Part shown: in pieces, positions 4,890-28,725 of the stretch
How positions within the stretch are numbered: position 1 is the first letter of the stretch
Layout of the letters: the number at the start of each line of letters is the position of its first letter
From: Promethearchaeota archaeon
Lineage (GTDB): Archaea > Asgardarchaeota > Lokiarchaeia > Sigyniarchaeales > SOKP01
Direction: 5' to 3'
NCBI GenBank assembly: GCA_019058015.1
Contig: JAHLWH010000193.1
Coordinates: 1-28,725, forward strand
DNA: 28,725 nucleotides
The notes under the pieces: model-generated
Seen by the model: only the letters and a program-made list of their open reading frames with translations
Databases searched by the model: none
What the model was told of the DNA's origin: nothing
Translations under genes and position numbers: made by a program

Positions 4890-5219
4890 ATGTCTAATGC
4901 TGATGTTATGTTCGATTTTTGTAAAGAAGAATTTAATATAGTCAATGGAAATAAAACTTCTCAAAAGATTTCATTATTTACTTTAAGTACATGCATGTGG
5001 TGTAAGAAAACTAAAAAGTATTTGAATGATAATAATATAAAGTATAGATTTATCGATGTAGATAAAATAGATAAAAACACAAAAAAAGGAATTTTAGATT
5101 GTTTAAGAAAAGCCTATAAAGAAAGAATTGCTTTTCCTTTTTTAATCGTTGACGATCAACCTATCGTTGGTTACGATCCAGAAAAATATAGAAAATTAAT
5201 TAAAAGGGAGGGAGTATGA
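4890..5219 (+). CDS. Glutaredoxin/NrdH-like redoxin
   Basis: TLSTCMWCKK CxxC, cis-Pro loop AFP, IVGYD. One nt separates it from the FTR gene. Confidence 0.9.
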   Translation: MSNADVMFDFCKEEFNIVNGNKTSQKISLFTLSTCMWCKKTKKYLNDNNIKYRFIDVDKIDKNTKKGILDCLRKAYKERIAFPFLIVDDQPIVGYDPEKYRKLIKREGV

Positions 5220-5220
5220 A

Positions 5221-5553
5221 ATGAATTTATCAACTAAAGATGGGATGATTCAATATTGTAAGCAAGTTGCTAAAACCAATAATTGGAATCTTAATAAGGA
5301 TAAAGAGACTTTTAAGGATTTAATAGATGGATTATTATATAATAAATTAAGATATGGATATCAATCTTGTCCATGTAGATTAGCTTCAGGAAAGAGGGAA
5401 TTAGATCGTGATTTAATTTGTCCATGTGATTATGCCCCAGCAGATATAATAGAATATGGGGCATGTTATTGCAATTTATATTTAGCTTCAAATTTTTATG
5501 AAAAGGGTTTGGATTTTGTAAATGTTCCTGAGAGGAGATCAATTGATTTGTAA
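5221..5553 (+). CDS. Ferredoxin:thioredoxin (glutaredoxin) reductase catalytic subunit
   Basis: Three diagnostic motifs CPCR, CPC and CYC, plus the VPERR tail. Confidence 0.92.
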   Translation: MNLSTKDGMIQYCKQVAKTNNWNLNKDKETFKDLIDGLLYNKLRYGYQSCPCRLASGKRELDRDLICPCDYAPADIIEYGACYCNLYLASNFYEKGLDFVNVPERRSIDL

Positions 5554-5714
5554 AGAAAAGCTGAAGAAAATATCTAGAACTAAGAAATTTATAAATTATA
5601 ATAAATTTGTTAAAAATCTTTCTCTATCTACATAACTAGTATAAAATAAATTACAAAAAATAGCCAGTAATAATTAATACATATTGAAATAACATTAATT
5701 TAAGGTGTATTAAA

Positions 5715-6203
5715 TTGGTATTAATCAGTAAAGAAATAAACGAAATAATGAATGCACAGATTATGAAGGAACTGGGATCAGCATATATTTATTTAGGGAT
5801 ATCGACATGGGCTGAGGAAAAATCGCTTCATAATATGGCAAAGTGGTTTAATGCTCAAGCTAAAGAAGAATATACACATGCAGAACGTTTTGTTAATTAT
5901 ATCATAGAAACGGGAGGTCATGTGGAATATCAAACAATAGATGGTGTTAAAACCGATTTTGAAAGCGTAGAGGATTGCATTAAAGCTACAATTGAACATG
6001 AAGAATATATTACAGGAGAAATAAAAAAAATATTAGAAAAGGCAATGGAATTAAAAGAATATGAAGCAATAGAAATGCTTCAATGGTTTATTAAGGAACA
6101 GATCGAAGAAGAGGCTCAATCTAACGAATTGATGACTACATATATTCTTTTTAGAAAAAATGATGCACTTTGGGATCAACATTTACACAGAGATGAGGAA
6201 TAA
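5715..6203 (+). CDS. ftnA: Ferritin (non-heme, FtnA-like)
   Basis: Ferroxidase residues in KELxSxYIY, EEYTHA, EHEEYIT and EQIEEE. TTG start 7 nt after the AGGTG ribosome-binding site. Confidence 0.92.
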   Translation: MVLISKEINEIMNAQIMKELGSAYIYLGISTWAEEKSLHNMAKWFNAQAKEEYTHAERFVNYIIETGGHVEYQTIDGVKTDFESVEDCIKATIEHEEYITGEIKKILEKAMELKEYEAIEMLQWFIKEQIEEEAQSNELMTTYILFRKNDALWDQHLHRDEE

Positions 6204-6341
6204 AAATAAACATATAAAAAATAGCAATATTGTGATTTTAAAAATTGCTTCAATTTTTTTTAATTTTTTTTAACGTTTTATTTATTTTCATTATAATTTT
6301 TTAACAATATATTTTTATTCTCAGTTTTCTCTTTAATTAAC

Positions 6342-6497
6342 ATGAGTTATAAAGAATTAACTGATGAAGAAGTAGAAGAAGAATTAGAAAGAGCTTACAA
6401 ATTAAAAGAAGTTCAAAAGAACCATTGTGGTACTGCCCTTCCATCTAGCAGAGAAACAGGACTTCAAAGAGATAAGGTTAAAATGAAAAAAGATTAA
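6342..6497 (+). CDS. Small hypothetical protein (51 aa)
   Basis: Read by hand: MSYKELTDEEVEEELERAYKLKEVQKNHCGTALPSSRETGLQRDKVKMKKD*. Purine-rich and GAA-rich like neighbouring genes, inside an otherwise T-rich intergenic region. Confidence 0.55.
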   Translation: MSYKELTDEEVEEELERAYKLKEVQKNHCGTALPSSRETGLQRDKVKMKKD

Positions 6498-6720
6498 CTT
6501 GGATTTTATTTGAGATAAAAAGCAAATATAATAATTTCAGATTAATTTTAATAAATTATTAAACATTTAGATGGAAAGGTTCCTATATCTTAAGTCAATG
6601 TTTATTTTTTTTTATAATATAATCTGTAGTTATTTACACTATTGGAAATATTATTATTTAAAAATAAAAATTTCTTAAGAAATATTCAAACACAAATAAA
6701 AAATTAATAGGTTAAGACCA

Positions 6721-7305
6721 ATGAAAAAAACAGTAGAAAATTTAATGGCAGCCTTTATGGGCGAATCTCAAGCAAGAAATAGATATACAATGTTTTCTAA
6801 AATAGCAAAAAAAGAAGGTTATGTACTAATATCAAAAATCTTTAGTGAAACCGCTGACCAAGAGAGAGAGCACGCAACGTGGAATTATAGAATGTTGCAA
6901 AATCTAAAAAAAGAAGAAAGTTTTGATGATTTGGAAGTTCAAGCTGCAGGACCTACAACTTATGGAACGACCGAAGAAAACTTAAAATCTGCAATTGCTG
7001 GAGAAGATTATGAATGGCAAGAAATGTATCCAGGATTTGCAGATGTTGCAGAAAAGGAAGGATATCCTGAAATTGCTACTCGATTGAGATCCATTGCTCG
7101 TGCTGAAAAACATCATTCAGAACGCTATGGTAAGCTTTTAAAACTAGTCGGTGATGATGCATTCTTCAAACGTGGGAAGAAGATTGTTTGGGTATGTATG
7201 GAGTGCGGTTATGAAGTAGAGATGGACGAATTACCAGAAGATTGGAGGTGTCCTGCTTGTGATCATCCAAGAGCATACTACCGAAAAAAATGTGAAGAAT
7301 TTTAA
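6721..7305 (+). CDS. rbr: Rubrerythrin
   Basis: [30 protein letters not shown] diiron ligands. C-terminal rubredoxin-like CMECG...CPAC. Confidence 0.95.
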
Positions 7306-7386
7306 ATTTTTTTAATATTTATAAGAAAATAATTTTTAAAATCAAAATATTCAATAAATAAACATATAAGAAAAGGCGAAAGAATC

Positions 7387-7779
7387 TTGACTCAATTAAA
7401 AGAAATTTATAAATGTGAAGTTTGTGGTAATATTGTTGAAATGCTTCATACTGGAGGTGGTACTCTTGTATGTTGCGGACAAGATATGAAATTAATAGAA
7501 CCAAAAACTGCTGATTATAAAGGAGAAAAACATGTTCCTTATTTAGAAATTGATGGGAATAAAGTGACTGTTTCTATTGGAATTGTTGCAAATATGGCTC
7601 ATCCAATGACTGAAGAACATTGGATTGAATGGATAGAATTAATTTGCAAGGATAATTGCTATAAAAGGAAATTTCTTAAGCCAGGCGATGAACCTAAAGC
7701 AACATTTGTAGTAGCAGATACTGAGGGACTATGGGCTAGAGAATATTGTAATTTACATGGTTTATGGAAATCAAAATAA
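7387..7779 (+). CDS. dfx: Desulfoferrodoxin (2Fe superoxide reductase)
   Basis: Desulforedoxin domain CEVCG...CCG. SOR ligands EKHVP, HPM, HWI, CNLHG. TTG start. Confidence 0.95.
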   Translation: MTQLKEIYKCEVCGNIVEMLHTGGGTLVCCGQDMKLIEPKTADYKGEKHVPYLEIDGNKVTVSIGIVANMAHPMTEEHWIEWIELICKDNCYKRKFLKPGDEPKATFVVADTEGLWAREYCNLHGLWKSK

Positions 7780-11101: not shown

Positions 11102-11548
11102 ATGAAAATAATGCCGGAAGAGATAAAAACAAAAGTAGGTTTAAAATTGGAAAAAGAAATGATATTTAAATGCGACTTGGGTAAAATGGCACTTAAAGAT
11201 TGCTATATTGACGAAACTAATCAACAAGAAGCAGATATGTGGGGTCCAAATCCATCTAGACTTTTAGGAATGGCTCTTTTGGGGTGTTTAAGTGCGAGTT
11301 TTATTTTTTGTTTAAAAAAAAGAAATTTTTCAATTGATGATTTAAAATCAGAAGCCGAAGTAGTAATTGGGAGGAATAATAGAGGGCTTTTAAGGGTAAA
11401 AAAAGTAAATGTCCATATAATCTCTAAAATTGACGATCCTAAAGCCCGTAAGAGGGCAGATCAATGTAGGAAGATGTTTGAGACTTATTGCACTGTTACC
11501 GCAGCTGTTAGGGACGGGATTGAAGTGAATGTAAATCTTGAATATTAA
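11102..11548 (+). CDS. OsmC/Ohr family protein
   Basis: GPNPxxLLxxALxGC and a second Cys in YCTVT. Start may be at 11111. Confidence 0.88.
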   Translation: MKIMPEEIKTKVGLKLEKEMIFKCDLGKMALKDCYIDETNQQEADMWGPNPSRLLGMALLGCLSASFIFCLKKRNFSIDDLKSEAEVVIGRNNRGLLRVKKVNVHIISKIDDPKARKRADQCRKMFETYCTVTAAVRDGIEVNVNLEY

Positions 11549-11675
11549 TTTTTTTAATTAAATATTTTATTTGTTTTTCTTTTGTTATGGTTTTTTTTTT
11601 TTGTTTAACTCAAGTACAATCTTATTTATTATTAAACAAACATTTAAATATGTAAGCTTACACTTTTTAAATAAT

Positions 11676-11700
11676 GGTTGTCAATCACAGTTTGACAACC
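11676..11700. promoter_or_regulatory. Perfect inverted repeat GGTTGTCAA-N7-TTGACAACC (putative heat-shock repressor operator) just downstream of a TATA-like TTTAAATA
   Basis: Seen directly. Ends 50 nt upstream of the dnaK ATG at 11751 and is comparatively GC-rich in an AT-rich intergenic region. Confidence 0.65.
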
Positions 11701-11750
11701 AAAAATTAACAGACTTTATAAAAATTAAAACTAAAAAAGAGGAAAATAAC

Positions 11751-13631
11751 ATGGGAAAAATAATTGGAATTGACTTGGGAACTTCTAATTCTGCAGCTGC
11801 TGTACTAATTGGGGGAAAGCCCACATTAATTCCGAGCGCTGAAGGACTCACTATTGGAGGTAAAGCTTTTCCTAGTGTAGTTGCCTTCACGAAAGATGGA
11901 CAACGATTAGTAGGAGAACCTGCTCGTAGACAAGCTATTTCTAATCCAGATAGAACCATAACTGCCATTAAACGAAAAATGGGTATGAGTTATAAGGTTA
12001 AAATCGATGGAAAAGATTATTCTCCGCAAGAAATTTCAGCAATGATCTTAAGTAAAATAAAGGAAGATGCGAGTGCCTTTTTAGGAGAAGAAGTAAGTGA
12101 AGCTATTATTACGGTTCCTGCATATTTTAACGATAATCAAAGGCAAGCCACAAAAGACGCCGGTAAAATTGCTGGATTAAACGTAAGAAGATTAATTAAC
12201 GAACCTACTGCTGCTGCCGTATCTTATGGTTTAGATAAGGAAGATATCTGTATTAAAATTGCTGTTCTTGATTTAGGAGGAGGTACATTTGATGTCACTA
12301 TTCTCGAAATGGAAAATAAAGTATTTGAAGTCATTTCCACAGCTGGAGATACTCAATTGGGAGGAACTGACATGGATAGAATTTTAGTAGATTATATTGC
12401 TACAGAATTTCAAAAGGAACAAGGAATTGATGTGAGAAAAGATTCTAAAGCAATGGAAAGGATTAGAGACGCAGCAGAAAAAGGAAAAATTGAGTTATCC
12501 ACGACGCTAACAACTGAAATAAATCTGCCTTACATTACTGCGGATGCAAATGGACCTAAACATTTAAACATGTCCTTAACCAGAGCCAAACTTGAGAGTT
12601 TAATTAGCCCAATTTTAAAAAAATTAGAGATATCTATTAAAAGGGCGTTAAGCGATGCAAACTTACAGTCTTCAAGTATAGATAAGATTCTGTTAGTAGG
12701 AGGGCCTACAAGAATGCCTAGCGTTCAAAAAAAGTTCCAAGAACTTTTTGGAAAGCCTCCAGAACATGGTATTGATCCGATGGAATGTGTTGCTCTGGGT
12801 GCTTCAATACAAGGTGGAATTTTATCTGGTGAAGTTAAGGATTTATTACTCTTAGATGTCACGCCACTCTCTTTGGGTGTCGAAACATTGGGAGGAGTAT
12901 TTACTAAATTAATTGAAAGAAATACGACAATTCCTACGAGAAAAACTGAAGTATTTTCGACAGCGTCAGACAATCAACCTGCAGTTGAAATTCATGTACT
13001 TCAAGGTGAAAGACCAATGGCTGCTGATAATATTACTTTAGGGACATTTCATTTAACTGGGATACCACCAGCTCTGAGAGGGGTGCCACAAATAGAGGTG
13101 ACATTTGACATCGATGAAAATGGCATTTTAAATGTAACAGCAAAAGACAAGGGTACTGGAAAACAAACTGGAATTACTATTACTGCTTCTACAAAGATGT
13201 CTGAATCAGAAATAAATGCAAAAATCAGAGAAGCCGAGAAATATGCTGAGGAAGATAAGAAAACCAAAGAATTAATGTCTTTAAAAAACCAAGCGGAATC
13301 TCTAATATATCAAACCGAGAAAATTATGAAAGAACACGAAGATAAAATCGGGGACTTAAAAACAACTATTGAACAAAAAGTTTTAGCGTTGAAGGGAGCT
13401 TATGAAGGAGAAGATCCTTCAAGGATTAAAAACGCAATGGAAGATTTACAAACTGCTTTACATCAAGTTTCAGCGAGGATTTATAGTCAAAATCAGACTT
13501 ATAAAGGTTATCCTGGTGGTTCATGCGGAATACCGCAAGATGATAGACCAGAATATGAAAAACAAGCTGAACAATATCGAAAAGCTTCTGGACAAGACGA
13601 TATAGTAGATACAGATTATGAAGCAGCCTAA
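11751..13631 (+). CDS. dnaK: Chaperone DnaK (Hsp70), 626 aa
   Basis: [11 protein letters not shown] after a GAGG ribosome-binding site, [24 protein letters not shown], linker [16 protein letters not shown]. Lacks the diderm N-terminal insert and carries the [15 protein letters not shown] insert. The ORF-track start at 11571 is too far upstream. Confidence 0.97.
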
Positions 13632-13640
13632 AATAAAAAT

Positions 13641-13671
13641 ATTTGTTTTTTTTTTAATATTTTTTTTTTTT
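13641..13671 (+). terminator. Oligo-T tracts after dnaK (possible archaeal intrinsic terminator or attenuator before dnaJ)
   Basis: Two runs of 10 or more T right after the dnaK stop. Similar T-tracts follow rbr, dfx, osmC and iscU. Confidence 0.4.
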
Positions 13672-13699
13672 AAAATTAAGAGATGTGCTGGGGTGAATA

Positions 13700-14707
13700 A
13701 TGCTGCCAAAGAAAAATTATTATAAAATTTTAGGAATAGATAAAAGCGCTACTAAGGAAGAAATAAAACGCGCTTTCCGAAAAATGGCAAGAAAATATCA
13801 CCCTGATGTAAATCCAGACGAACCAAAATCTGGAGAAAAATTTAAAGAAATTAATGAAGCTTATAGCATCTTGAACGATGATAAAAAGAGGGAGATGTAC
13901 GATAAATTTGGAGTAGTAGATGGTGATCGCTCAACATATTATCAATCTACCCCTGGTAGTAGTCGTTCAAATTTTAATAGAACTCCTGACGGAACTTATG
14001 TATATACTAGCTCCGGAAATCCTAGAGATTTTAGCGAATTTTTCAAAAGTATGGGAAGTTCGGGGAGATTCTCAGGATCTAATTTCGATTTCTTTAATGA
14101 TTTAGGAGATATATTTGATGTTTTTTCAAATAAAAGAAGTGGTAGTACAAGAACAAGGGTAAGACCAAATATCCCTCGAGAAGGTGAGGATTTGAGATAT
14201 GATATGGAAGTTAATTTTATGGAAGCATTTTATGGGGGTACTAGAAAGGTTCAATATATAGATCCTGCTACTAATAAAAAAACTACCCTATCAATAAAAA
14301 TTCCTAGAGGAGTACATGATAATCAGAAATTAAGACTTAAAGGTAAAGGTATGCCGGGAGAATATGGTGGTCCAAATGGCGACCTTTATATAGTAATTCA
14401 CATTGAGAATCATACAATTTTTGAAAGAAGAACCAATGATCTCTATATCGAAAAAGAAATACCCTTCTCAGTTGCAACATTAGGGGGAAAAATTAAAGTT
14501 CCTAAAATCGATGGGGGCACTTTAAATGTAAATATTCCTTCAAGAACTCAACATTATGCCACTCTTAGATTAAAAAATCAAGGATTTTATAAATTGAATT
14601 CAGATCAAAGAGGTGATTTATTGGTGAAAGTAAAAATTAATGTTCCCAAAAAATTAACGGGAGAACAGAAAGAATTATTATTAAAATTAAAAAATTTAGG
14701 GTTATAA
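13700..14707 (+). CDS. dnaJ: Class B J-domain protein (DnaJ/CbpA-like, no zinc finger)
   Basis: J domain with HPD, G/F-rich region with DIFD, C-terminal domains (GEDL, LKGKG...GDLY, RGDL), no CxxCxGxG repeats. GGTGA ribosome-binding site. Confidence 0.9.
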
Positions 14708-17252: not shown

Positions 17253-18446
17253 ATGAGTGTATATTTAGATTATCAAGCAGCTAAACCAGTTGATCCAAGG
17301 GTTCTATCTGCAATGAGACCATATTATAATAAAATTTTTGCAAATCCCGCATCTCTACATTTTGATGGAGATGATGCTACCAATGCCTTAAAAGAATCGC
17401 GTCAAAAAATTGCGGATTTCATTAATGCTCCAAGTCCAGATAGTATAATATTTACATCTAGTGCAACGGAAGCCAGTAATTTAGGACTAATTGGTGCGGC
17501 TTTAAATAGAAAAAGAAAGGGAAATCATATTATAATTTCTGAGATTGAGCATATTTCGATATTAAATATTGGAAAATACTTAGAAAGACAAGGTTTTGAA
17601 GTTTCAAGGGTTGGTGTTGATAAATTTGGTGTCATCAATATAGAAAAATTAAAACGTTTAATTAGAGAGAATACAATTCTAATTTCAATTACCTCTGCTA
17701 GTAATGAAGTAGGATCTCTCCAACCCATAGCGGAGATTAGCGAGATAGCACAAGAAAAAGGTATTTTGTTTCACACAGATGCTGTAGCAATTGAAAATGT
17801 TATTCCTATTGATGTGCAAAATGTTCCGGTAGATTTAATGACTTTTTCTTCAAACGATATTTATGGACCTCGGGGTGTTGGTGCGTTATACTTAAAAAAA
17901 GGAGTGAAAGTGAATCCTATTATTATAGGAGGTGGTCAAGAAAGAGGTATGAGATCAGGCTCCGAAAATATGCAAGATATTGTGGGATTTGGTAAAGCAG
18001 CTGAAATTATGAAACTAGAAATAAATCAAGAGGCAAACCGTTTGAAAGGTTTTAAAGATAAGCTCATTTCGGAGGTTTTATCGTCAATACCTAAATCTTA
18101 TTTAAATGGCCATCCCGACAAAAGGCTTCCCAGTAATGCTCATTTTAGATTTGAATATATTGAAGGTGAATCATTAATCTTATCATTAAGAGATCAAAAT
18201 GTATCTGCAGCAACAGGGTCTGCTTGCAGTTCTAAAACTTTAGAGCCATCCCACACACTTATCGCAATGGGATTACTACATGAAGAAGCTCACGGTAGTT
18301 TACTTATCTCAATGGGTCGATACACAAAAGAATCCGATATTGATAAAGTTGTAGAAGTATTACCTGATATTGTTAAAAAATTAAGAATTTTATCTCCGTT
18401 AACTCCTCCTGATTTATTAAAAAAATATAATGAGGTAAAAAAATAA
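17253..18446 (+). CDS. iscS: IscS/NifS-like cysteine desulfurase homolog with the catalytic Lys replaced by Asp
   Basis: YLD, NPAS, EH, HTDA, GGGQERG.RSG and TGSACSS (Cys325). SSNDIYGP replaces SxHKxYGP, and SLLIS replaces SLRFS. Confidence 0.92.
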   Translation: MSVYLDYQAAKPVDPRVLSAMRPYYNKIFANPASLHFDGDDATNALKESRQKIADFINAPSPDSIIFTSSATEASNLGLIGAALNRKRKGNHIIISEIEHISILNIGKYLERQGFEVSRVGVDKFGVINIEKLKRLIRENTILISITSASNEVGSLQPIAEISEIAQEKGILFHTDAVAIENVIPIDVQNVPVDLMTFSSNDIYGPRGVGALYLKKGVKVNPIIIGGGQERGMRSGSENMQDIVGFGKAAEIMKLEINQEANRLKGFKDKLISEVLSSIPKSYLNGHPDKRLPSNAHFRFEYIEGESLILSLRDQNVSAATGSACSSKTLEPSHTLIAMGLLHEEAHGSLLISMGRYTKESDIDKVVEVLPDIVKKLRILSPLTPPDLLKKYNEVKK

Positions 18447-18447
18447 T

Positions 18448-19242
18448 ATGAAATCAACAACATATTCTGAAAAAGTATTAGATCACTTTAGAAACCCAAG
18501 AAATATGGGAGAAATAGAAACTCCAGACGGTATGGGAAAAGTTGGAAATCCAGTATGCGGAGATCTTATGTGGATTTATATCAAGGTCGGTAAAAACGAA
18601 AAAGGCGAGGAAATAATAGAAGATATTAAGTTTAAAACATTTGGTTGTGGTTCTGCTGTGGCGACTTCTTCTATGATTACTGAAATGGCCAAGGGAAAAA
18701 CGCTTAACGAAGCGTATAAAATAACGAGATCTGATGTGGCAGAAGAACTCGATGGATTACCTCCGATTAAAATGCATTGTTCTAATTTGGCAGCTGATGC
18801 GCTTCAAGCAGCAATTCGTAATTATAGAGACGGTGCAAATCCAGAAGTTGATGTAATTACTGCTTGCCAATTAGAAGAAAAAAATATCATAGGTTTTAAT
18901 GAGTTTCTTGGTAAGGGAACTTATAAGAAAGCAGATAATTTATCAGAATTTAATGATGAAAGAGTGTTAATTGTAGATAACGGAGACAATTCATTAAAAC
19001 TCGCATTAGAATTAACAAAACATACTGGAAGAGTTGTAGTAGTCACTTACAGTAAAGCTACTCCTGGTAATGCAGAAATACAAGAAAAATTAAAAATATC
19101 TGATGTAAAAATTATATACCAATCTGAGCTTCTAGAAATAAATGGATTTGACGATGTAGAAAAGGTTATCATACACGATTTCGATGAAGATAATAATTAC
19201 GAGTTATTTGTGGATAAAGTAATATTACTTGAAGATAAATGA
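18448..19242 (+). CDS. iscU: IscU/NifU-type Fe-S scaffold fused to a degenerate thioredoxin-reductase NADPH-binding-like domain
   Basis: YSEKVLDHF.NPRN, GNPVCGD, FGCGSA, LPPIKMHCS. About 120 extra C-terminal residues (EFLGKG...RVLIVDNGDNSLKLALEL...EINGFDDVEKV...ELFVDKVIL). Confidence 0.9.
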   Translation: MKSTTYSEKVLDHFRNPRNMGEIETPDGMGKVGNPVCGDLMWIYIKVGKNEKGEEIIEDIKFKTFGCGSAVATSSMITEMAKGKTLNEAYKITRSDVAEELDGLPPIKMHCSNLAADALQAAIRNYRDGANPEVDVITACQLEEKNIIGFNEFLGKGTYKKADNLSEFNDERVLIVDNGDNSLKLALELTKHTGRVVVVTYSKATPGNAEIQEKLKISDVKIIYQSELLEINGFDDVEKVIIHDFDEDNNYELFVDKVILLEDK

Positions 19243-19361: not shown

Positions 19362-20543
19362 TTAATTTTCAATTTCAAAAAAAATCTTCAAATGTGAATA
19401 TTTAGAATTAAGAAGATTTAGTACTTTTTCAGTAAAAGCTCTAAGATTTTTTGAATGTTGAAATCTAAAATCTCTTTGCTCTATTAAATAATCATGAATC
19501 ATTTTCCGAGTATTATCATGACCATGAGACGAAAGAAATTCAATCCAATGAATTGATATTCTACATATTCTCTCTAATTCGTTATCTGGATATTCAGAGT
19601 TATCAAGCATCATATAATGATATTTATTTATCGATTTTGCAACCCTTTCTAAGTGATCAGCAATTCCTAACGAATATCGACAAAGAGTTATCAAATTCGA
19701 AGTTGTTCGTGTATTTCTTGTATTAACGGCCTCCTCAAATGCAATCCAAGCATTAAGCCACTCTTCTTCTCTAAGCCTCTCTCCGCAATGTTTATAATCG
19801 CATCCATTAACTATGGCTACATTTATTAAATCACTAAGGTCAACATCATGACCTCTTTTTATTTTTTTGCTAAAAATTTCCTTTAGGCTTGTACCTTCAA
19901 GATAAGCTCCTGACCCGAAATCCAATAATAAGTTTATATCATTTGCTGCAATAAGCTTATTTGCTTCCCTTTCATTTCTAATAAGATTGACCCACTGAAT
20001 TTGTTTTTCCCATTCTTTTGTATCTGATATCCTTTTCCAACCATTTTCTTTTAACACGTGCTCATATAAATCCATTTTGAAAATCCAGAAGTCAATATCA
20101 TCAGTAAATCTTTTTCTTCTCCAATCTCTCGTAGCATATTTGCCTAAATATAATTTTAAAGTCCCTCTAACCAATGCATATTTACCATTTTCTAATGTTT
20201 TACGCGCATCTTCATAAAATTTATCGTTAGGGTCATTAGCGATTTCTACTATTTTATTTAAAATTATTCTTGTTTCCTTAGCAACTATATCACAAGGTAT
20301 GCTTCCATCGGATGGATAGTGCCTTGAACCTCCGTTTAAAAATTTCTCGAATAATTCAATATTATCATCAGGGATGACATACCACGGATTATTAAATAAA
20401 ACTTTACTGAATACATAATGCGTGAAACCGTTTTCATCCTTTCCTGTTTTGCCAGTTAAAGGCGAAACATCTCTATTATTATCTCCTCTTTTCACAACAT
20501 CGGATTTAACATCCCAAATACCATTCATAACTTTTAATTCCAT
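19362..20543 (-). CDS. Hypothetical protein with a putative nucleotidyltransferase (AbiEii/Pol-beta-like) motif
   Basis: [10 protein letters not shown]...RFTDDIDFW (RxTxDxD) and [13 protein letters not shown]. Overlaps the yyaL stop. Start could be 20528. Confidence 0.6.
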
Positions 20544-22672
20544 CTTGGATTAATAAGTTTTAACAATTCATTGACATCTGTTATTGGGGGTTTACAAGTT
20601 TTATTTGTGCATATATAAGCAGTAGTTTTATTATCTATTTTATTGTAATTATGGATATAATTTATAAATACATCAATTTCTGGAGGAACCTGTTTGATAT
20701 TTCTCTGAATTAATGATATATTTGGGAGAAATTGATTATGAATATATGCTAACATTTCTTGCGTATTAATTTCTTCAGCATCCCCAACAATTACTATTGT
20801 AAAGGTTGGACCAACGCTAAAATCAACTGCAACCATTAATTGAGTATGCGCAATCGGTGAATTATTAACTCGTTCAGCAAAAACTTTACTTAAAATATCC
20901 GCTTTTTCTTCTAAATCGTGATCTCCAGTTAAATAACTCAATCTCAATAAATTTAACATAGCTACAGAATTTCCTGATGGGATTGCTCCATCGTAGATCT
21001 CTTTCTGACGAGTTAAAAGTGTCTCACCATCATTGGCTGTAAAAAAGAAACCACCTATTGAATCATCCCAAAAATGATCTATTACTTCTTTATTTAATTC
21101 CAGAGCAGTCTTAAGAAAAGTAACTTCTAAACTAGTTTCATATAATTCAATAAATCCCCATATTAAGAAGGTATAATCATTTAGGTAAGCATCAATTTTA
21201 GCATCTCCTTCTCTATATCGATGTAATAATCTATTGTTTGGTTTCCGCATATTTGAAAGTATAAAATTTGCCGCTTTTTTTGCCACATTTAAATAAATAG
21301 AATCGCCAAAAATTTGATATCCTTTAGCAAATGCAGCAATCATTAATCCATTCCAATCAGCTAATATCTTATCATCTTTATGGGGATGAACTCGTTCATC
21401 TCTAATTTTGAATAATTTTTCGCGAATTTTTTCAATCCTAAATCTTAAATCCTTTTCAGAAATGTTTAATTCTTTAGAAAGGTTGGTCAATGAATCTTTA
21501 AGATGCAATATATTATGACTTGTCTTTTTTTTTGTTGTTTCTTCTAAATAATTTCCTTGATTTTTTAAATTAAATATTTTTCTTGCTAATTCTTCTTCTT
21601 CCTCTTCAAGTATTTGTTGGAATTCTTCAATAGTCCATACATAAAACTTTCCTTCTTTACCCTCACTATCAGCATCCTCAGCTGAATAAAATCCCCCCTC
21701 AGGTGAAGTCATATCACGTAAGACATAAGTAAAAATTTCTTTAGCTGTATTTGCGTATTCATTTTTTTTAGTTGCTTGGTAAGCTTCTGTATAAGCAATT
21801 GCCAATAAAGCTTGATCGTAGAGCATCTTTTCAAAATGGGGAACAAGCCAAACTGGATCTGTAGAATATCGATGAAAACCAAATCCGATATGATCATAAA
21901 TACCACCAAGCCTCATTTTTTGAAGGGTATTTTCAACCATCTCTAAAGCTTCTTTATTTCCAGTACGCTTCCAAAATCTTAAAAGAAAGAGAAGATTATG
22001 TGGAGTAGGAAATTTGGGAGCGTTGTTGAAACCTCCATTTTTATTATCATATTGACTCAATAATTGGTTATAAGCTTTTTTAATGGTTTTTTCGTTAAGT
22101 TTATCTCCGGGCGATTTAAAATCTAAATTTTGTAAAGAAAAAGCAATTTGATCTGCAGATCTTAACACATCGTTTTTTTGTATTTTCCAAAGCTCTTTTA
22201 TTTTTAATATGAGTTCTATCAAACCTATTCGACCAAATCTCCTTTCTTTAGGAAAATAGGTTCCAGCAAAAAATGGTTTTTTATCAGGAGTTAAAAATAA
22301 CGTAAGTGGCCATCCCCCTTGACCTGTCATCATTTGACATATAGTCATATAGATCTTATCAATATCAGGTCGCTCTTCTCTGTCAACTTTAATTGAAACA
22401 AAGATTTCGTTCATTAATTCTGCCACTGCTGTATCTTCAAACGACTCATGTGCCATAACATGACACCAATGGCAAGTAGAATATCCAATTGATAAGAATA
22501 TTGGCTTATTTTCTTTTCGTGCCTTTTCAAATGCTTCTTTTCCCCATGGATACCAATTAACAGGATTTTCAGCATGTTGAAGTAAATAAGGACTTTTCTC
22601 ATTTATTAGTTTATTATGTGTAATTTCATCATTTTGAGATGAATTTTTTTTTTCCAACAATCTTTTATCCAT
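20534..22672 (-). CDS. YyaL/SPATA20-like thioredoxin-domain plus alpha/alpha-barrel protein (DUF255)
   Basis: [53 protein letters not shown]. Confidence 0.93.
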
Positions 22673-23260: not shown

Positions 23261-23460
23261 TTTAGGAACCTCCAAATTTATTTAATATAAAATTAAATTA
23301 TTTTAAATATCCTTTTTGAAACCATTAACATAATTATTATGATTTGGTGTTCTTTAACTTATTTTAAATTAAAGGTTATTTTCAATTAAATATTTAAAGC
23401 ATTTAACTAAAATAAGGAACAATTATGTTGAAATTATTAATAAAAAATAAAATTTCGATT

Positions 23461-24303
23461 CTACTCAATATTTAATATTTTTTTTATTTTATTTATTCTC
23501 TCGTCTCTATACTGCCTTTTCTCTACTGGGTTATGATCACCATATAATAATTCACAAAAAGTTGGTTTCTCAGTTCTATAAAATATTCCAATAAATAATT
23601 TATCTTTATTCTTTGCATATAATTTTGCTTCTTCAATGCTTTTAGGAATATCATCAAGTTCTTCAACAATTTCGTTGTATAATTTATAAGTATTATTATA
23701 GCTAACACAAGGTTGTAGAACTTCTAAGAAAGAAAAACCCTTATGTTCTATCGCTTGAACCATCATATCTGTAAGGTGCTGTATTTTCGCTGTATAGGAC
23801 CTAGCAACGAAGGTAGCTCCTGCTTCCAAAACTAAAGATATAGCATTAAAAGGTTCTTCAACGCTTCCCTTGGGCGTGGAAGGTCCTTTCCAACCTCTTT
23901 CAGTAATCGGCGTATATTGTCCCGTTGTTAAAGCGTAAACACCGTTGTTGTGCATAATTATTGTTACATCTGCGTTCCGTTTTGCAGCAAATAGTAAATG
24001 CGTTAAACCTTCGCCCATTGCATTTCCATCTCCTGAGAATGTGATTGTTTTTAAATTTGGATTGGCAAATTGAATTCCCTCTATTGTAGCTAAATCTCTT
24101 CCATGTAATGAATAAATACCGCTGAGATTAAGATAATCAAAGATTTTTGCGCTACAACCAATACCAGAAGCAATTAAAATATTATTTTGTGAAATTCCTT
24201 TTTCTTCAAGCTCAATAATTGCTTTCTTGAAAGCATTTAAAATTCCAAAATTACCACAACCTAGGCACCAGGTATTTTCGACACTAGTTCCTAATTTCAC
24301 CAT
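23461..24303 (-). CDS. korB: 2-oxoacid:ferredoxin oxidoreductase beta subunit
   Basis: TWCLGCG, SGIGCS, LHGR, TPP motif GDG...NN, YALTTGQ, QPC. The ATG at 24303 is 1 nt after the korA stop. Confidence 0.92.
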   Translation of the reverse strand: MVKLGTSVENTWCLGCGNFGILNAFKKAIIELEEKGISQNNILIASGIGCSAKIFDYLNLSGIYSLHGRDLATIEGIQFANPNLKTITFSGDGNAMGEGLTHLLFAAKRNADVTIIMHNNGVYALTTGQYTPITERGWKGPSTPKGSVEEPFNAISLVLEAGATFVARSYTAKIQHLTDMMVQAIEHKGFSFLEVLQPCVSYNNTYKLYNEIVEELDDIPKSIEEAKLYAKNKDKLFIGIFYRTEKPTFCELLYGDHNPVEKRQYRDERINKIKKILNIE

Positions 24304-24304
24304 T

Positions 24305-25963
24305 TTATGCCACATCCTTAATTTTTTTAGATAATTTTATTGGGTCGAAAGGTCTTCCATCGTATTGCTTTATTACTTTTTTTAATTGAATATTCATATT
24401 TTCTTTAAGTAAATTAGCAAATTGACCTATAGCACTTTGCTCTATAACAATAACTTCTTGGTCTTTAAATTTTTCAAGCTCCCAAATGGGCAATGGACTC
24501 AAAAAAATTGGTTGTACAACTCTAGCCTCAATATTACCATACTTTAATGCTTCTAATACGCTCATCACCGTTGAACCATATGTAATTATTATTGGCCCCT
24601 TATCCCCAAAAATATTTATTGTTTTTTTTTTCCTAAGGTAATTTTCTAATGATTTAAACTTTTTATTTCGTTTATTATGCATCCTTTTAATCCATCGAGG
24701 ATCTTCAGTTGTAAATCCAAACTCATCATGTTCATAACTATTCCATTTGAGTATTTCCTTTGCTGGTGGAAATAATAAGGGGGATATTCCATCCTCTGTA
24801 TCGAAATATCTTTTATATTCTCCATCTTTATGAAGCAGTGGTTCAGCCCAAATAGTGTCATTTAAATTTATATCGACTGTTATACTACTCTCTGATAAAT
24901 GTTTTTCTGTGAGTAATATTCCAGGAGTTTGAAACTTCCATACTAAATCCAACATTTGAGCTGTAAGAAAAAATGCCTCCTCTATAGTTCCTGGAGAAGC
25001 AACGATGCGTAAAAATTCCCCATGACCCGCATTTAAAGCAAAATTTAAATCTCCTTGTTCTGTATAAGTGGGAACGCCCGTAGCTGGTCCAGGTCTCATG
25101 GATAATACAATTAATACAGGTGATTCGATTATTCCACCTAATGAAATTCCCTCAGCCAGCAAAGAAAAACCTCCGCCGCTAGAACCAACCATTGTCCTCG
25201 CTCCAGTAAAGGTTGATCCTATAGCCATATTTATTACTGCTATTTCATTTTCGGGATGTATAACTGCAAGTCCAAAATCATCTGCTATAGCAGCAAGATA
25301 ATGTAGGATGGATGTGGCTGGTGTCATAGGATAAGCGTAATAACAATCTAATCCACCTGCTATTGCTCCTAATGCTATTGCTTGATTTCCCAAGATATTC
25401 GGTCTTTTTTTAGATCCTCCCTCTAATTGGAATTTTCCTCCAATTATGGGATAGACAATATCATAAATAATATTGGCATAAGAAATATTCTCTTTAACAC
25501 CTTTAGAATATTCATTCTTTATTAATGCATTTAACTCTGTTTTATTAACGCCAATTGTCGCCCCTAATATAGCAATAGCACCAACTCCAAGCATTAGATT
25601 AGGATTAGGAAATTTTTTTGCTTCGCTAGTTAAAGAAATACCTATACCATCCATATCTCCTTTAATATCAGAATTATAGACCATTAAACCTCCTTCAGAA
25701 AGGTGGTCTATATGATTATCATAGCTTCTTTTATCAAGATTAACTATAAGATCAGCTTTCATATAATGACTACTAATCCATCTAGTAGAAGTACTAACAA
25801 CCGAGAAATTATGTCCTCCTTTTATTAAACTCATATAATCATCCATTTGAAATACAAAACGACTCTTATTTATAAAAAGTTGAGAAGCAACTGAACCTGC
25901 TTTTTTAACACCTTGACCAGCTTTACCCCCAACTATAAATGTGAATACATTCTTTTCCGTAAT
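24305..25963 (-). CDS. korA: 2-oxoacid:ferredoxin oxidoreductase alpha subunit (gamma-alpha fused type), probable ATT start
   Basis: YPMTPAT, ENEIA, SSGGGF, RPGPATG.PT..EQGD. The conserved N-terminal VGGKAGQGV motif lies in frame upstream of the first ATG (25846). An ATT at 25963 sits 7 nt after AGGTG. Confidence 0.88.
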   Translation of the reverse strand: MTEKNVFTFIVGGKAGQGVKKAGSVASQLFINKSRFVFQMDDYMSLIKGGHNFSVVSTSTRWISSHYMKADLIVNLDKRSYDNHIDHLSEGGLMVYNSDIKGDMDGIGISLTSEAKKFPNPNLMLGVGAIAILGATIGVNKTELNALIKNEYSKGVKENISYANIIYDIVYPIIGGKFQLEGGSKKRPNILGNQAIALGAIAGGLDCYYAYPMTPATSILHYLAAIADDFGLAVIHPENEIAVINMAIGSTFTGARTMVGSSGGGFSLLAEGISLGGIIESPVLIVLSMRPGPATGVPTYTEQGDLNFALNAGHGEFLRIVASPGTIEEAFFLTAQMLDLVWKFQTPGILLTEKHLSESSITVDINLNDTIWAEPLLHKDGEYKRYFDTEDGISPLLFPPAKEILKWNSYEHDEFGFTTEDPRWIKRMHNKRNKKFKSLENYLRKKKTINIFGDKGPIIITYGSTVMSVLEALKYGNIEARVVQPIFLSPLPIWELEKFKDQEVIVIEQSAIGQFANLLKENMNIQLKKVIKQYDGRPFDPIKLSKKIKDVA

Positions 25964-25987
25964 TTTAACGCACCTATAAGAAGATAA

Positions 25988-27388
25988 TCATAATTTTACA
26001 AACTTATCTTTTGAAACTCCACATACTGGACAATGCCAATCATCTGGAATTTCTTTAAATGGAGTTCCTGGAGAGATTCCACTATCTGGATCACCTTTTA
26101 CAGGATCATAAATATATCCACACACTGTACATCTATATTTTCCTCCCAGTTCCTCACTAGTTTTTAATGAAATTGGCGAAATTTCAACTTCTTCTTCTCT
26201 TTCTGCCTCAATTTTTGGGAGTTCAAATAAATTGGGCATTCTATGTTTATATTGTTTCATCACAAATCTTGAAATGATTATTCTTTGGATTTCTGAGGTG
26301 CCTTCGTAAATTTGAAATAGTTTTGCATCTCTGAATAACTTTTCTAATGGGTATGTTTTAATATAACCGTAACCTCCCATTATTTGAATAGCTTCAGTAG
26401 CTACTTGCATAGCAACATCCGAGGCAAAAGCTTTTGCACATGCTGCACTTAATGTATTATCTAACCCTTGATCTGTCTCCCATGCTGATTTATGGGTTAA
26501 TAATCGACTAGCTTCAATATTTTTATACATTTCTGCAATTTTAAACTGAATAGCTTGATAATTTGCTATTGACCTTCCGAAAGTCTCTCTTTTTTTTGCA
26601 TAATCAATCACATATTCCATAGCGGACCTTGCTAAACCAGTAGCAAAACCTCCTATAGCTGGACGAGTATGAGCAAATGTTTGCATTGCTAAAACAAAAC
26701 CTCTCCCTGGAGGAGCTAATACATTTTCTTTTGGAATTCTCAAATTTTTTAAAACCACCGAAGTAGTATTTGATGCTCTATGCCCCAATTTAGGAATTGG
26801 TTTTCCTATTTTAACTCCCTCTAAATCAGTTGGTACAATAAAAGCACATATTCCTTTATGTTTTTTTGCTGGATCCACTGTTGCAAATAGAGAAATATAT
26901 TTTGCATAACCTGCATTGGTAATCCAATACTTTGTACCATTTAAAATATAATCTTCTCCATCTTTTTGAGCTCGACAATTAATTCCAGCAACATCAGAAC
27001 CCATTTCAGGTTCAGAGGTGGCAAAAGAAATTAAAGTAAATTTTTTTACTAATTCTCCTAATATTCTATCTTTCTGTTCTTCATTACCTCCTAAAATTAT
27101 TGGCTCTGCTCCCAAATTATTTGCGAATATGGATGTTGCGAATCCGGGACAAGCCGCAGCAATTTCCTCAACAACTACTACAGATTCTAAAAGACCATAA
27201 CCAGGTCCCCCATATTTTTTTGGAATTACTAAATTCACTAAACCTGCCTTATAAGCTTTCTCAATAATTTCAATTGGAAATTTCCCATGTTCATCGTAAC
27301 TAGCTGCTACTGGCAAGATTTCCTTAATTGCAAATTCCTGTGCTTTTTTTTGCAATTCTTTTTGAGTGTCTGTTAAATGAAAATCCAT
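25988..27388 (-). CDS. Acyl-CoA dehydrogenase with a C-terminal rubredoxin domain
   Basis: [34 protein letters not shown] and catalytic IYEGT. The last 50 aa form a full rubredoxin ([10 protein letters not shown]...W.CPVCG). Confidence 0.93.
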
Positions 27389-27400
27389 ATCTTAAAACCT

Positions 27401-28606
27401 TTATACCATTTTCTCAATTAGTTTATCGATAATTTTTTTGAAGTTAAGATCTTCGGGCTTTGGAACAAATTTAATTTCTATACTTTCTTCTAAAATATCG
27501 ATTTTAGAAGCTTCTAACTCTTTAATAATTTCTTTCACAGCTCCACCACCCCATCCATACGAACCAAAGGCTAGTCCTATCTTATTCATTGGCTTTAAAC
27601 CTTTCTGATAACACACATATTCTGCCACTGTTGGATACATTCCATTATTTAAAGTTGGACTTCCTATAATAATTGCTTTTGAAAGCATAGCTTCTGTTAT
27701 TACGTCAGAATAGTCTGCGTTAGTTAATTTATATCGTTTCACTTTTATCCCTCTATATTGCAATTCCTTGTATAGGGCTTTTGCGATAATTTCGGTGCTT
27801 CCCCACATTGTATCATATACAATTATTGCTGTTTTATTATCAATTTCTCCTGCTGACCACTTTTTATACCTTTCAACGATATCTCCTACATGTTTCCTCC
27901 AACAAACTCCATGCGAAGGGCAAATAATTTCTATTGGCAAAGAACCTACTTTGGGTAAAACATTTGAGATCAGTTTCGATAAATGAAGTAAAATATTTGC
28001 ATAATATTTAACCGCTTCTTCCATTATTACGTCAAAATCATTCTCATCATCCCAACGTGAGGAAGTGGCGAAATGTTGTCCAAAAGCATCATTTGAAAAT
28101 AAAATATTTTTACCATTTTCGTCTGTCATAAATGATACCATTGAATCAGGCCAATGGATCATTGGGATTGGAACAAATGTAATTTTTTTACCGTTACCAA
28201 TATCTAAAGTATCTCCTTCTTTCACAGCTCGAATATTATTGAATACTTCATCATTAACTTCTTTATGAAAATGATCTCTTAAAATTTCAACACCCTTTTT
28301 AGAAGCGATAATTTTAGCGTTTGGAAGATATTTAATGATTAATGGAAATGAGCGAGAATGGTCCATTTCAACATGGTTCATGATAAGGTAATCAATTTTA
28401 TCCAAATTAATACCGCTCTTTATATTCTCCAAGAAATAATTAAAAAAAGGACGTTTAACCGTATCTATCAAAACATTTTTTTCTCCTTTTACCAAATAAG
28501 CATTATATGATGACCCCCTGTGTGTAGAATATCCGTGAAAATTTCTTACCTCCCAATCTACATAACCTACGTAATAAATATCCTTCATTAATTCAGTTTG
28601 AATCAT
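27401..28606 (-). CDS. fprA: Flavodiiron protein (FprA/ROO, class A)
   Basis: SYNAYL, diiron ligands NHVEMDH, HWPD, NDAFG and PSHG. Flavodoxin domain YDTMWGST, GSPT, FGSYGW. Confidence 0.95.
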   Translation of the reverse strand: MIQTELMKDIYYVGYVDWEVRNFHGYSTHRGSSYNAYLVKGEKNVLIDTVKRPFFNYFLENIKSGINLDKIDYLIMNHVEMDHSRSFPLIIKYLPNAKIIASKKGVEILRDHFHKEVNDEVFNNIRAVKEGDTLDIGNGKKITFVPIPMIHWPDSMVSFMTDENGKNILFSNDAFGQHFATSSRWDDENDFDVIMEEAVKYYANILLHLSKLISNVLPKVGSLPIEIICPSHGVCWRKHVGDIVERYKKWSAGEIDNKTAIIVYDTMWGSTEIIAKALYKELQYRGIKVKRYKLTNADYSDVITEAMLSKAIIIGSPTLNNGMYPTVAEYVCYQKGLKPMNKIGLAFGSYGWGGGAVKEIIKELEASKIDILEESIEIKFVPKPEDLNFKKIIDKLIEKMV

Positions 28607-28725
28607 TTTTTTATCAACTTTTTTTCTTATTTAATTGATTTTTTGAATTTCTTTGAATAATATTTAATTAGACTCAGAAACTTATTATAAATTTAATTTT
28701 TTTTAAATATAAATAATACAATTAA

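Follow-up and report, generated by a model that had tools for sequence, protein, structure and literature searches.

Gene content and layout of the locus

The DNA analysed here, called the window throughout, is an entire 28.7-kb contig (JAHLWH010000193.1, 28,725 nucleotides; C196 in the analysis) of a Loki-type Asgard archaeon, whose genome was assembled to 3.84 Mb with 29% G+C, 283 contigs and 94% completeness. The closest proteins go under names such as Promethearchaeota, Promethearchaeia or Lokiarchaeota archaeon, in keeping with this assignment. Open reading frames (ORFs) and Pfam domains placed on its minus strand the co-oriented series fprA, ACAD-Rd, korA and korB, encoding a flavodiiron protein (FDP), an acyl-CoA dehydrogenase (ACAD) that ends in a rubredoxin (Rd) domain, and the two subunits of a 2-oxoacid:ferredoxin oxidoreductase. 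The redox system that fprA and ACAD-Rd may form is the subject of this text. The features are listed below in window coordinates, with the basis of each in brackets.

28607-28725, minus strand: AT-rich region upstream of fprA, reaching the contig end and continuing into contig C242
27401-28606, minus strand: fprA, class A FDP, 401 aa (Pfam domains, invariant residues)
27389-27400, minus strand: spacer between fprA and ACAD-Rd, 12 nt (sequence)
25988-27388, minus strand: ACAD-Rd, whole gene, 466 aa (Pfam)
26249-27388, minus strand: ACAD domain of ACAD-Rd, residues 1-380 (Pfam Acyl-CoA_dh_N, _M and _1)
26141-26248, minus strand: linker of about 36 residues, 381-416 (tail alignment, AlphaFold2)
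25988-26140, minus strand: rubredoxin domain, residues 417-466, and TGA stop (PF00301)
25964-25987, minus strand: spacer between ACAD-Rd and korA, 24 nt, with AGGTG at 25975-25971 (sequence)
24305-25963, minus strand: korA, fused gamma/alpha subunit, 552 aa when read from ATT (Pfam POR and POR_N)
23461-24315, minus strand: korB, beta subunit with thiamine pyrophosphate (TPP) and [4Fe-4S] sites, 284 aa from the first ATG (Pfam TPP_enzyme_C and PFO_beta_C)
23276-23460, minus strand: AT-rich spacer after korB, 185 nt, starting with T runs (sequence)
6721-7305, plus strand: rubrerythrin (Rbr), convergent with the ACAD gene (Pfam)
7387-7779, plus strand: desulfoferrodoxin (Dfx), convergent with the ACAD gene (Pfam)

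The initial annotation of the window had described four co-oriented genes separated by 12, about 24 and 1 nt. All four were found on the minus strand with the expected domains. Among the gaps, that of 12 nt was confirmed, that of 24 nt holds only if korA starts at an ATT codon, and that of 1 nt is obtained only from the second ATG of korB (24303), the first (24315) giving an 11-nt overlap with korA. Since the internal spacers are this short and T runs flank the series, as a long T-rich stretch after the free rubredoxin gene on contig C242 and again after korB, fprA, acad, korA and korB look like one transcription unit by their layout, and the 185-nt spacer past korB is its likely end.

Domain architecture and conserved residues

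The FDP was covered by PF19583 (ODP/metallo-beta-lactamase) at residues 35-233 and by PF00258 (flavodoxin) at residues 262-387, and it was assigned to class A because no extra domain was found. Residues H78-x-E80-x-D82-H83, H151, D173 and H232, which we take to be the diiron ligands, were invariant across 31 orthologues; the diiron ligands (on this assignment) and the FMN domain that characterise the class A FDP of the butyryl-CoA:oxygen oxidoreductase (BOOR), compared below, were thus both present. The FDP frames of relatives (L053:4982-6193, L056:5750-6988, L058:5770-6984) become 7-12 codons longer upstream if an ATT start is allowed, a hint that other members of this family also begin at non-canonical codons.

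In ACAD-Rd, the N-terminal, middle and C-terminal ACAD domains of Pfam spanned residues 6-376, and the C-terminal rubredoxin claimed for this protein proved complete (PF00301, residues 417-463, E 3.3e-24, 47/47 model positions); with the NCBIfam rubredoxin model the protein scored 90 bits at a cut-off of 90. Both CxxC pairs, C420/C423 (CTVC at 420) and C453/C456 (CPVC at 453), were conserved in the 27 fused sequences recovered from related genomes, with the glycine after the first CxxC replaced by alanine in 6 tails. Neither PF00766 (ETF_alpha, of electron-transferring flavoprotein, ETF) nor PF01012 was matched in the 466-aa protein. Within the dehydrogenase part, E362 in a Y-E-G-T motif and W155 were invariant in 62 ACAD sequences; we take E362 to be the catalytic glutamate of the family and W155, with a role carried over from medium-chain acyl-CoA dehydrogenase (MCAD), to be the tryptophan that faces ETF. 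The best solved relatives of this part were MCADs (1ukw at 9e-114, the pig and human enzymes at 4e-112 to 3e-108), behind which structures of short-chain acyl-CoA dehydrogenase (SCAD) and butyryl-CoA dehydrogenase (Bcd) ranked at 1e-85 to 1e-78, and no NCBIfam equivalog cut-off was reached.

Alignment of the tails showed a linker with conserved ends (MPNLFELP and SEELGGK) and a variable, charged middle. In an AlphaFold2 monomer model, block averages of the predicted confidence score pLDDT were 44-65 over residues 371-410, with residues 396-405 below 50, and 75-91 over the rubredoxin domain, so the model predicts a disordered linker and a folded rubredoxin, as expected for a tethered carrier. 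The Rd domains closest to the fused one (66-85% identity) were those of FDP-Rd and NADH:rubredoxin oxidoreductase (NROR)-like fusions. A recent duplication of the free rubredoxin was considered as the source of the fused domain and rejected, the loop of the free Rd being shorter. The C-terminal Y-E-x-x-M-P extension was likewise rejected as an FDP-specific docking motif, as Asgard ACADs that are not linked to FDP have a similar tail. A complex prediction from FDP and ACAD-Rd alignments scored 0.00 in two runs made without controls and speaks neither way.

Distribution, conserved adjacency and origin of the fusions

A search of 400 genomes of the phylum returned the full-length ACAD-Rd fusion from 27 genomes, all of one family (f1) and from seven of its genera (g1, g3, g7, g9, g11, g12 and g13). 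Two of the 27 copies were cut by contig ends (L045, L060) and are uninformative for synteny, which leaves 25 informative loci. Two other forms of the enzyme were recovered alongside it: an orthologue without the fusion (392-395 aa, 72-75% identity), which is widespread in family f1, and a form of 446-462 aa, 53-57% identical, which carries a rubrerythrin-type mini-rubredoxin (mini-Rd, PF21349) in place of the Rd domain and occurred in 15 genomes (genera g2 and g4 of f1, and families f3 and f4). Sampling covered 20 of about 70 loci for the unfused form and 7 of 15 for the mini-Rd form.

A same-strand FDP-type gene stood directly upstream of the ACAD gene in 12 of the 25 informative fused loci, in 17 of the 20 unfused and in 5 of the 7 mini-Rd loci sampled, and in none of five ACAD loci from other Asgard families. 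Across 33 loci of relatives, the junction ranged from -26 to 24 nt, and the pairing extended over six genera of family f1 and two of a second family (about 8 genera). Among the 17 paired unfused loci, a small free Rd gene directly preceded the FDP gene in 8 and lay within one ORF of it in 3 more. Because the pairing is conserved and because Rd occurs free, fused, or fused as mini-Rd (a Rosetta-stone pattern), the comparison lends support to a redox connection of the ACAD with Rd and the FDP.

Recurring neighbours were, upstream, an NROR with a fused Rd (Pyr_redox_2, Rubredoxin_C and Rubredoxin) and, downstream and convergent, Dfx, Rbr and a CoA-disulfide-reductase/rhodanese protein, with Dfx and Rbr a few genes away. 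The order is the same in the window, where some 18 kb of additional sequence has been inserted, including genes for a nitroreductase, a DUF255 thioredoxin-like protein, IscS/NifU, DnaK/J, OsmC and an acetyl-CoA synthetase.

A tree of 71 ACADs was computed by a quick IQ-TREE search under LG+G4. All 27 Rd-fused rows formed one clade (SH-aLRT 97), to which the 8 mini-Rd rows, again one clade (SH-aLRT 99), were sister; by this topology, each fusion is consistent with a single origin. The Asgard ACADs nested among plain ACADs. P0165, a representative of the BCR type (the BOOR dehydrogenase architecture) from Bacillota metagenome-assembled genomes (MAGs), came out basal beside the outgroup on a long branch, its exact place unsure, so that this quick search gave no common descent of the Asgard fusion with P0165.

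A word-based search with residues 385-466 gave 35 matches, and all 27 of those that combine ACAD and Rd were Asgard-type-named or unnamed. When the 10 odd-length sequences among the 150 best representatives at 50% identity were scanned with Pfam, a rubredoxin-type domain was found only in P0130 (mini-Rd), whose tail as a query returned 3 matches, and in P0165. The nearest clusters in the Atlas were two ACAD clusters from bacteria, labelled Thermodesulfobacteriota and 443 and 448 aa long; direct fusions may also occur in bacteria.

Further variation in the same cluster was seen among the relatives. The NROR of genus g1 (401-424 aa; L035:4121-5326) has no C-terminal rubredoxin, and that of genera g6, g10, g11, g12 and g13 (446-454 aa; e.g. 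L054:3194-4537) has one; judged from these sequences, Rd domains appear to have been gained and lost on several enzymes of the cluster. Genome G179 holds both a fused (L053) and an unfused (L075) FDP-ACAD locus with near-identical neighbours (HAD, Dfx); either the cluster has been duplicated or the bin, with 7% contamination, combines two strains.

Putative electron donors beyond the contig end

The last 141 nt of contig C242 matched the reverse complement of the window end exactly, and both contig ends aligned to one continuous locus in the sister genome G146. Two genes on C242 immediately precede fprA, one for a free rubredoxin (PF00301, 51 bits) and one for a 401-aa protein of NROR type, that is, a pyridine-nucleotide-disulfide oxidoreductase of the NADH:rubredoxin/flavorubredoxin reductase type. 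The earlier statement that no free rubredoxin or NROR gene is present was therefore an artefact of the contig end, and both genes also lie near Rbr and Dfx. The free rubredoxin gene (C242:32270-32431) has no in-frame ATG, GTG or TTG; the usual M-x-K-Y-x-C N-terminus would result from a start at a CTG that lies 8 nt behind GAGGGG, or at an ATA.

The reported absence of etfAB applies to the window, where no ETF gene was found among the scanned ORFs of at least 90 aa, and does not extend to the genome, which contains two etfAB pairs (contigs C193 and C69). Each pair lies beside another ACAD paralogue, at most 40% identical to ACAD-Rd.

korA and korB

The alpha subunit with POR (gamma) and POR_N domains and the beta subunit with a TPP domain and cysteines, as expected of a two-subunit 2-oxoacid:ferredoxin oxidoreductase, were both found. 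KorB has cysteines at residues 17, 20, 54 and 203, which presumably bind the [4Fe-4S] cluster, and the gamma domain of KorA is complete only if the gene is read from ATT. Its ATG-truncated form scored 454 bits with TIGR03710, below the equivalog cut-off.

Upstream, the korA frame stays open as far as the TGA that ends ACAD-Rd, and it contains no ATG, GTG or TTG before codon 40 of the gamma domain; the first such codon, at 25846, would leave a 141-nt gap and remove the N-terminal GGxGxG part of that domain. A start at ATT (25963-25961) is most likely, since AGGTG sits 7 nt upstream, the internal ATG is ATA in the sister genome G146, orthologues of another genus have an ATG one codon from the same position, and orthologous open frames measure 552-568 aa. 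The AGGTG, which resembles a ribosome-binding site, is conserved in each of the three genomes of this genus with korA at this place, and in all three the TGA of ACAD-Rd lies in the korA frame, 8 codons before the ATT. Read-through of this TGA, joining ACAD-Rd to KorA, was rejected as the default, TGA ending 201 of 1473 long ORFs genome-wide; the ribosome-binding-like site and the ATT ahead of korA also disfavour it.

In the synteny survey, the link between korAB and the dehydrogenase proved not to be conserved. korAB follows ACAD-Rd in 3 of the 27 fused loci (G000, G145 and G146, all of one genus), and the three genomes are 94-97% identical at this locus, so effectively one event was sampled; the position is occupied by korAB in none of the 24 other fused loci and in none of 32 other ACAD loci. 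Orthologous korA genes (58-70% identity) are mostly located elsewhere in the genomes of the family, in G168 about 10 kb from the ACAD gene and on the opposite strand. Matches at E<=1e-40 occurred in 100 of 135 genomes, a count that includes fragments and a 33-38% identical paralogue, and the window korA as a query gave no match in the sister genome G148 (100% complete, same genus). Because korAB adjoins ACAD-Rd in one genus only, it is best described, from gene order, as a recent, genus-specific insertion into the fprA-ACAD operon and not as a conserved part of the system. It is probably co-transcribed with fprA and acad.

Proposed mechanism and weighing of alternatives

From the observed gene content, domain architecture, conserved motifs, adjacency, and fusion and fission of Rd, we infer the direction of electron flow, the substrate, the acceptor and any physical complex as set out here. 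The MCAD-like ACAD would oxidise an acyl-CoA to the enoyl-CoA on its FAD, with E362 as the catalytic residue, and the Fe(Cys)4 centre of the flexibly tethered C-terminal Rd would take up the electrons singly, in two one-electron transfers. From the Rd they would reach the class A FDP with its FMN and diiron site, and there O2 would be reduced to 2 H2O at the expense of two acyl-CoA per O2. A parallel input from NADH through NROR and free Rd to the FDP would be available from the genes immediately upstream, and the fused Rd might also serve Rbr and Dfx.

We hold it to be probable, if only by a little, that the products of fprA and ACAD-Rd form a shortened BOOR-type system, an acyl-CoA:oxygen (possibly NO) oxidoreductase of two proteins. 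It is proposed because of the combination of a class A FDP with the ACAD-Rd architecture, the invariant motifs, the precedent of BOOR, the conserved adjacency, the Rd fusions, the linker and the gene context, in which Dfx, Rbr, NROR (with or without Rd) and a CoA-disulfide-reductase-like gene are conserved neighbours and glutaredoxin, ferredoxin:thioredoxin reductase, ferritin, OsmC and DnaK/J are encoded in the window. As NROR and free Rd are encoded immediately upstream of fprA, the system may be seen as belonging to an oxygen-defence cluster of Lokiarchaeia that draws on two sources of electrons. A wider claim is put forward more tentatively: Lokiarchaeia-type Asgard archaea may possess an acyl-CoA:O2 oxidoreductase of their own, separately evolved, in which the FAD of an MCAD-like dehydrogenase delivers electrons straight to Rd, whether free, fused or fused as mini-Rd, and then to the FDP with no ETF-type flavin in between. 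Traces of O2 could then take up the electrons that these 'strict anaerobes' release in oxidising fatty acids or amino acids.

Several findings weigh against an acyl-CoA:oxygen oxidoreductase. No precedent for direct transfer from the FAD of an ACAD to rubredoxin was found in the literature consulted, and BOOR has an extra FAD domain between the two. With an NROR/Rd donor encoded next door the FDP does not need the ACAD, and with two etfAB pairs in the genome ETF could serve ACAD-Rd in trans. The FDP gene does not adjoin ACAD-Rd in 13 of the 25 informative fused loci, of which 6 have NROR or Rd only upstream, 6 lie behind vWA/Ssl1-like genes and 1 follows unknown ORFs; in G148, a genome from the genus of the window, both free Rd and FDP are missing between NROR and ACAD-Rd. 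The compared genomes are also relatives, and part of the shared gene order is to be expected from inheritance.

A special case of the BOOR-type reading was contained in the initial annotation, namely a full chain in which KorAB makes the substrate of ACAD-Rd and electrons run from amino acid through 2-oxoacid, acyl-CoA, FAD, Rd and FDP to water. KorAB looks intact in its domains and beta-subunit cysteines, the 24-nt spacer between ACAD-Rd and korA leaves no room for a promoter, T runs follow only after korB, and the arrangement is identical in G145 and G146. The chain is nevertheless unlikely in view of the single insertion event (3/27 fused and 0/32 other ACAD loci), the location of orthologous korA elsewhere in most genomes of the family and the missing match in G148. 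KorAB also reaches no NCBIfam equivalog cut-off and its specificity is not readable from sequence; if it used pyruvate or 2-oxoglutarate, the products would be acetyl- or succinyl-CoA, which are not ACAD substrates. KorAB could supply branched-chain acyl-CoA if it accepts such 2-oxoacids, to which the comparative data lend no support.

Two other explanations were weighed. One assumes that there is no direct coupling: ACAD-Rd would be an ETF-dependent enzyme of beta-oxidation or amino-acid degradation, its adjacency to the FDP gene inherited and its Rd tail a redox sensor or a protective or structural module. The genomic etfAB pairs, the conserved W155 (by its role in MCAD), the half of the fused loci in which no FDP adjoins and the relatedness of the genomes agree with this. 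Against it stand the acquisition of Fe(Cys)4 domains of two kinds by one ACAD lineage, the free Rd kept in the operon by the unfused lineage, the intergenic gaps of a few nucleotides that persist across genera, and the fact that the ACAD paralogues beside etfAB are different proteins; the explanation is considered improbable. The other turns the flow around, from NADH through NROR and the fused Rd to an ACAD that acts as a non-bifurcating enoyl-CoA reductase, with the FDP merely sharing the rubredoxin pool. NROR and free Rd are indeed conserved neighbours, NROR/Rd and not FDP lies directly upstream in 6 fused loci, and rubredoxin is close in potential to the crotonyl-/butyryl-CoA couple, for which E0' is given as -10 mV in PMC12288474. 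It is, however, the FDP gene (gaps 2-24 nt), and not NROR, to which the ACAD gene is linked most tightly and most widely; the neighbours are genes of oxygen defence and not of fermentation; the only characterised relative, BOOR, is described as working oxidatively; and the genome already holds ACAD-etfAB sets for reductive or bifurcating chemistry, which together make a reversed flow distinctly improbable.

Other genes of the window and of related loci

Oxidative stress is the common theme of the window as a whole (4890-7779 and 11102-14707), which has genes for glutaredoxin, the catalytic chain of ferredoxin:thioredoxin reductase, a ferritin-like protein, Rbr, Dfx, OsmC and DnaK/DnaJ. IscS/NifU genes are located at 17253-19242 and the DUF255 thioredoxin-like protein is encoded at 20534-22672. 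A 393-aa ORF at 19362-20543 (minus strand), for which Pfam gave no family, shares 10 nt with the end of the DUF255 gene and is also kept beside it in G146 and G148. At the opposite contig end, an FtsZ/tubulin-family gene of 403 aa was found at 499-1710 (minus strand).

Among the related loci, ACAD-Rd follows one or two tandem Asgard-specific genes of 420-480 aa in genera g3, g7 and g13 (L040-L044, L051; e.g. L043:8544-9836). Pfam recognised in these only a weak zinc ribbon at the C-terminus, and their nearest Atlas clusters are of vWA/Ssl1 type (TFIIH p44-like); they were considered as redox partners and set aside, no redox family having been found.

Significance

If the proposed route is true, the BOOR principle, in which electrons from acyl-CoA reach O2 through a soluble flavodiiron oxidase, would extend beyond Fusobacteria and Firmicutes and would have arisen again in Asgard archaea. 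Direct reduction of rubredoxin by an ACAD without an ETF-like flavin would add a new redox partner to a well-studied enzyme family. Lokiarchaeia would have a substrate-level, O2-consuming route, which bears on the oxygen tolerance of the archaeal ancestor or partner in eukaryogenesis. The three natural forms (free Rd, fused Rd and fused mini-Rd) are ready-made constructs for mechanism tests. What the present locus contributes is korAB as an insertion specific to one genus, a likely ATT start for korA, the link across contigs to NROR and free Rd, and the picture of three forms.

Comparison with known systems

The closest known system is BOOR of Fusobacterium nucleatum, which according to PMC12288474 and PMC12528894 consists of two proteins, the class A FDP FN1423 and the BCR FN1424, the latter combining Bcd, an EtfA C-terminal FAD domain and a rubredoxin. 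The same sources, with PMC12630350, describe an alpha4beta4 complex that oxidises butyryl-CoA, reduces O2 to water and has no NO reductase activity, and all three cite Bystrom & Wolthers 2024, Biochemistry 63:2352, as the source study. The initial annotation had taken BOOR for a single chain and the archaeal system for a novel 'split' version of it; on these descriptions FDP and BCR are separate proteins, so that two proteins are already the known state. Its proposal of a BOOR-like redox module thus keeps its FDP/ACAD-Rd core, as a sequence-based assignment, and loses the KOR link, the 'split', the supposed lack of NROR and Rd, and the independence from ETF, which finds no support in a genome with two etfAB pairs. 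No literature on FDP/ACAD-Rd systems of Asgard archaea was found in the library searched, and the genome survey of the primary BOOR study may already list such variants.

As in BOOR, the class A FDP gene is dicistronic with a gene for an ACAD ending in rubredoxin (here 12 nt apart on the same strand), the predicted path runs from acyl-CoA through flavin, Rd and FMN/diiron to O2, and the genes occur in strict anaerobes. Unlike BCR, the ACAD-Rd of the window has no ETF-alpha FAD domain and only a predicted disordered linker of about 36 residues between ACAD and Rd, whereas the BCR-type P0165 (638 aa) carries PF00766 at residues 437-517 in this position. Identity of ACAD-Rd was 39% to P0165 and 48-52% to plain ACADs (from a Polyangiaceae MAG and a Helarchaeota MAG). 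The ACAD is also closer to MCAD than to Bcd or SCAD, its substrate not being readable from sequence, and the system differs further in being archaeal and in having an NROR/free-Rd input encoded alongside.

The NROR-rubredoxin-FDP chains of anaerobes, to which NorW and the flavorubredoxin NorV of E. coli are comparable, share with the window rubredoxin as the immediate donor of the FDP, and NROR and free Rd lie directly upstream of fprA. They differ from the window in that a second rubredoxin is here attached covalently to an ACAD, a non-pyridine-nucleotide electron source. These systems are also mentioned in PMC12288474 and PMC12528894.

With the MCAD-ETF and Bcd-EtfAB systems the ACAD shares the fold, the catalytic glutamate in Y-E-G-T and the FAD chemistry, but no etf gene lies beside it and rubredoxin replaces ETF as the encoded neighbour. 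KorAB resembles the archaeal two-subunit 2-oxoacid:ferredoxin oxidoreductases (TIGR03710 / NF041170-NF041171) in its fused gamma-alpha KorA, its TPP-containing KorB with cysteines for one [4Fe-4S] cluster and the lack of a delta subunit, and departs from them in scores below the equivalog cut-offs, in the ATT start and in the insertion of its genes into the fprA-ACAD operon, in this genus only. Judged by architecture and tree, the real differences of the Asgard system from BOOR thus appear to be the missing ETF-alpha domain, the MCAD-like ACAD and an origin separate from that of P0165.

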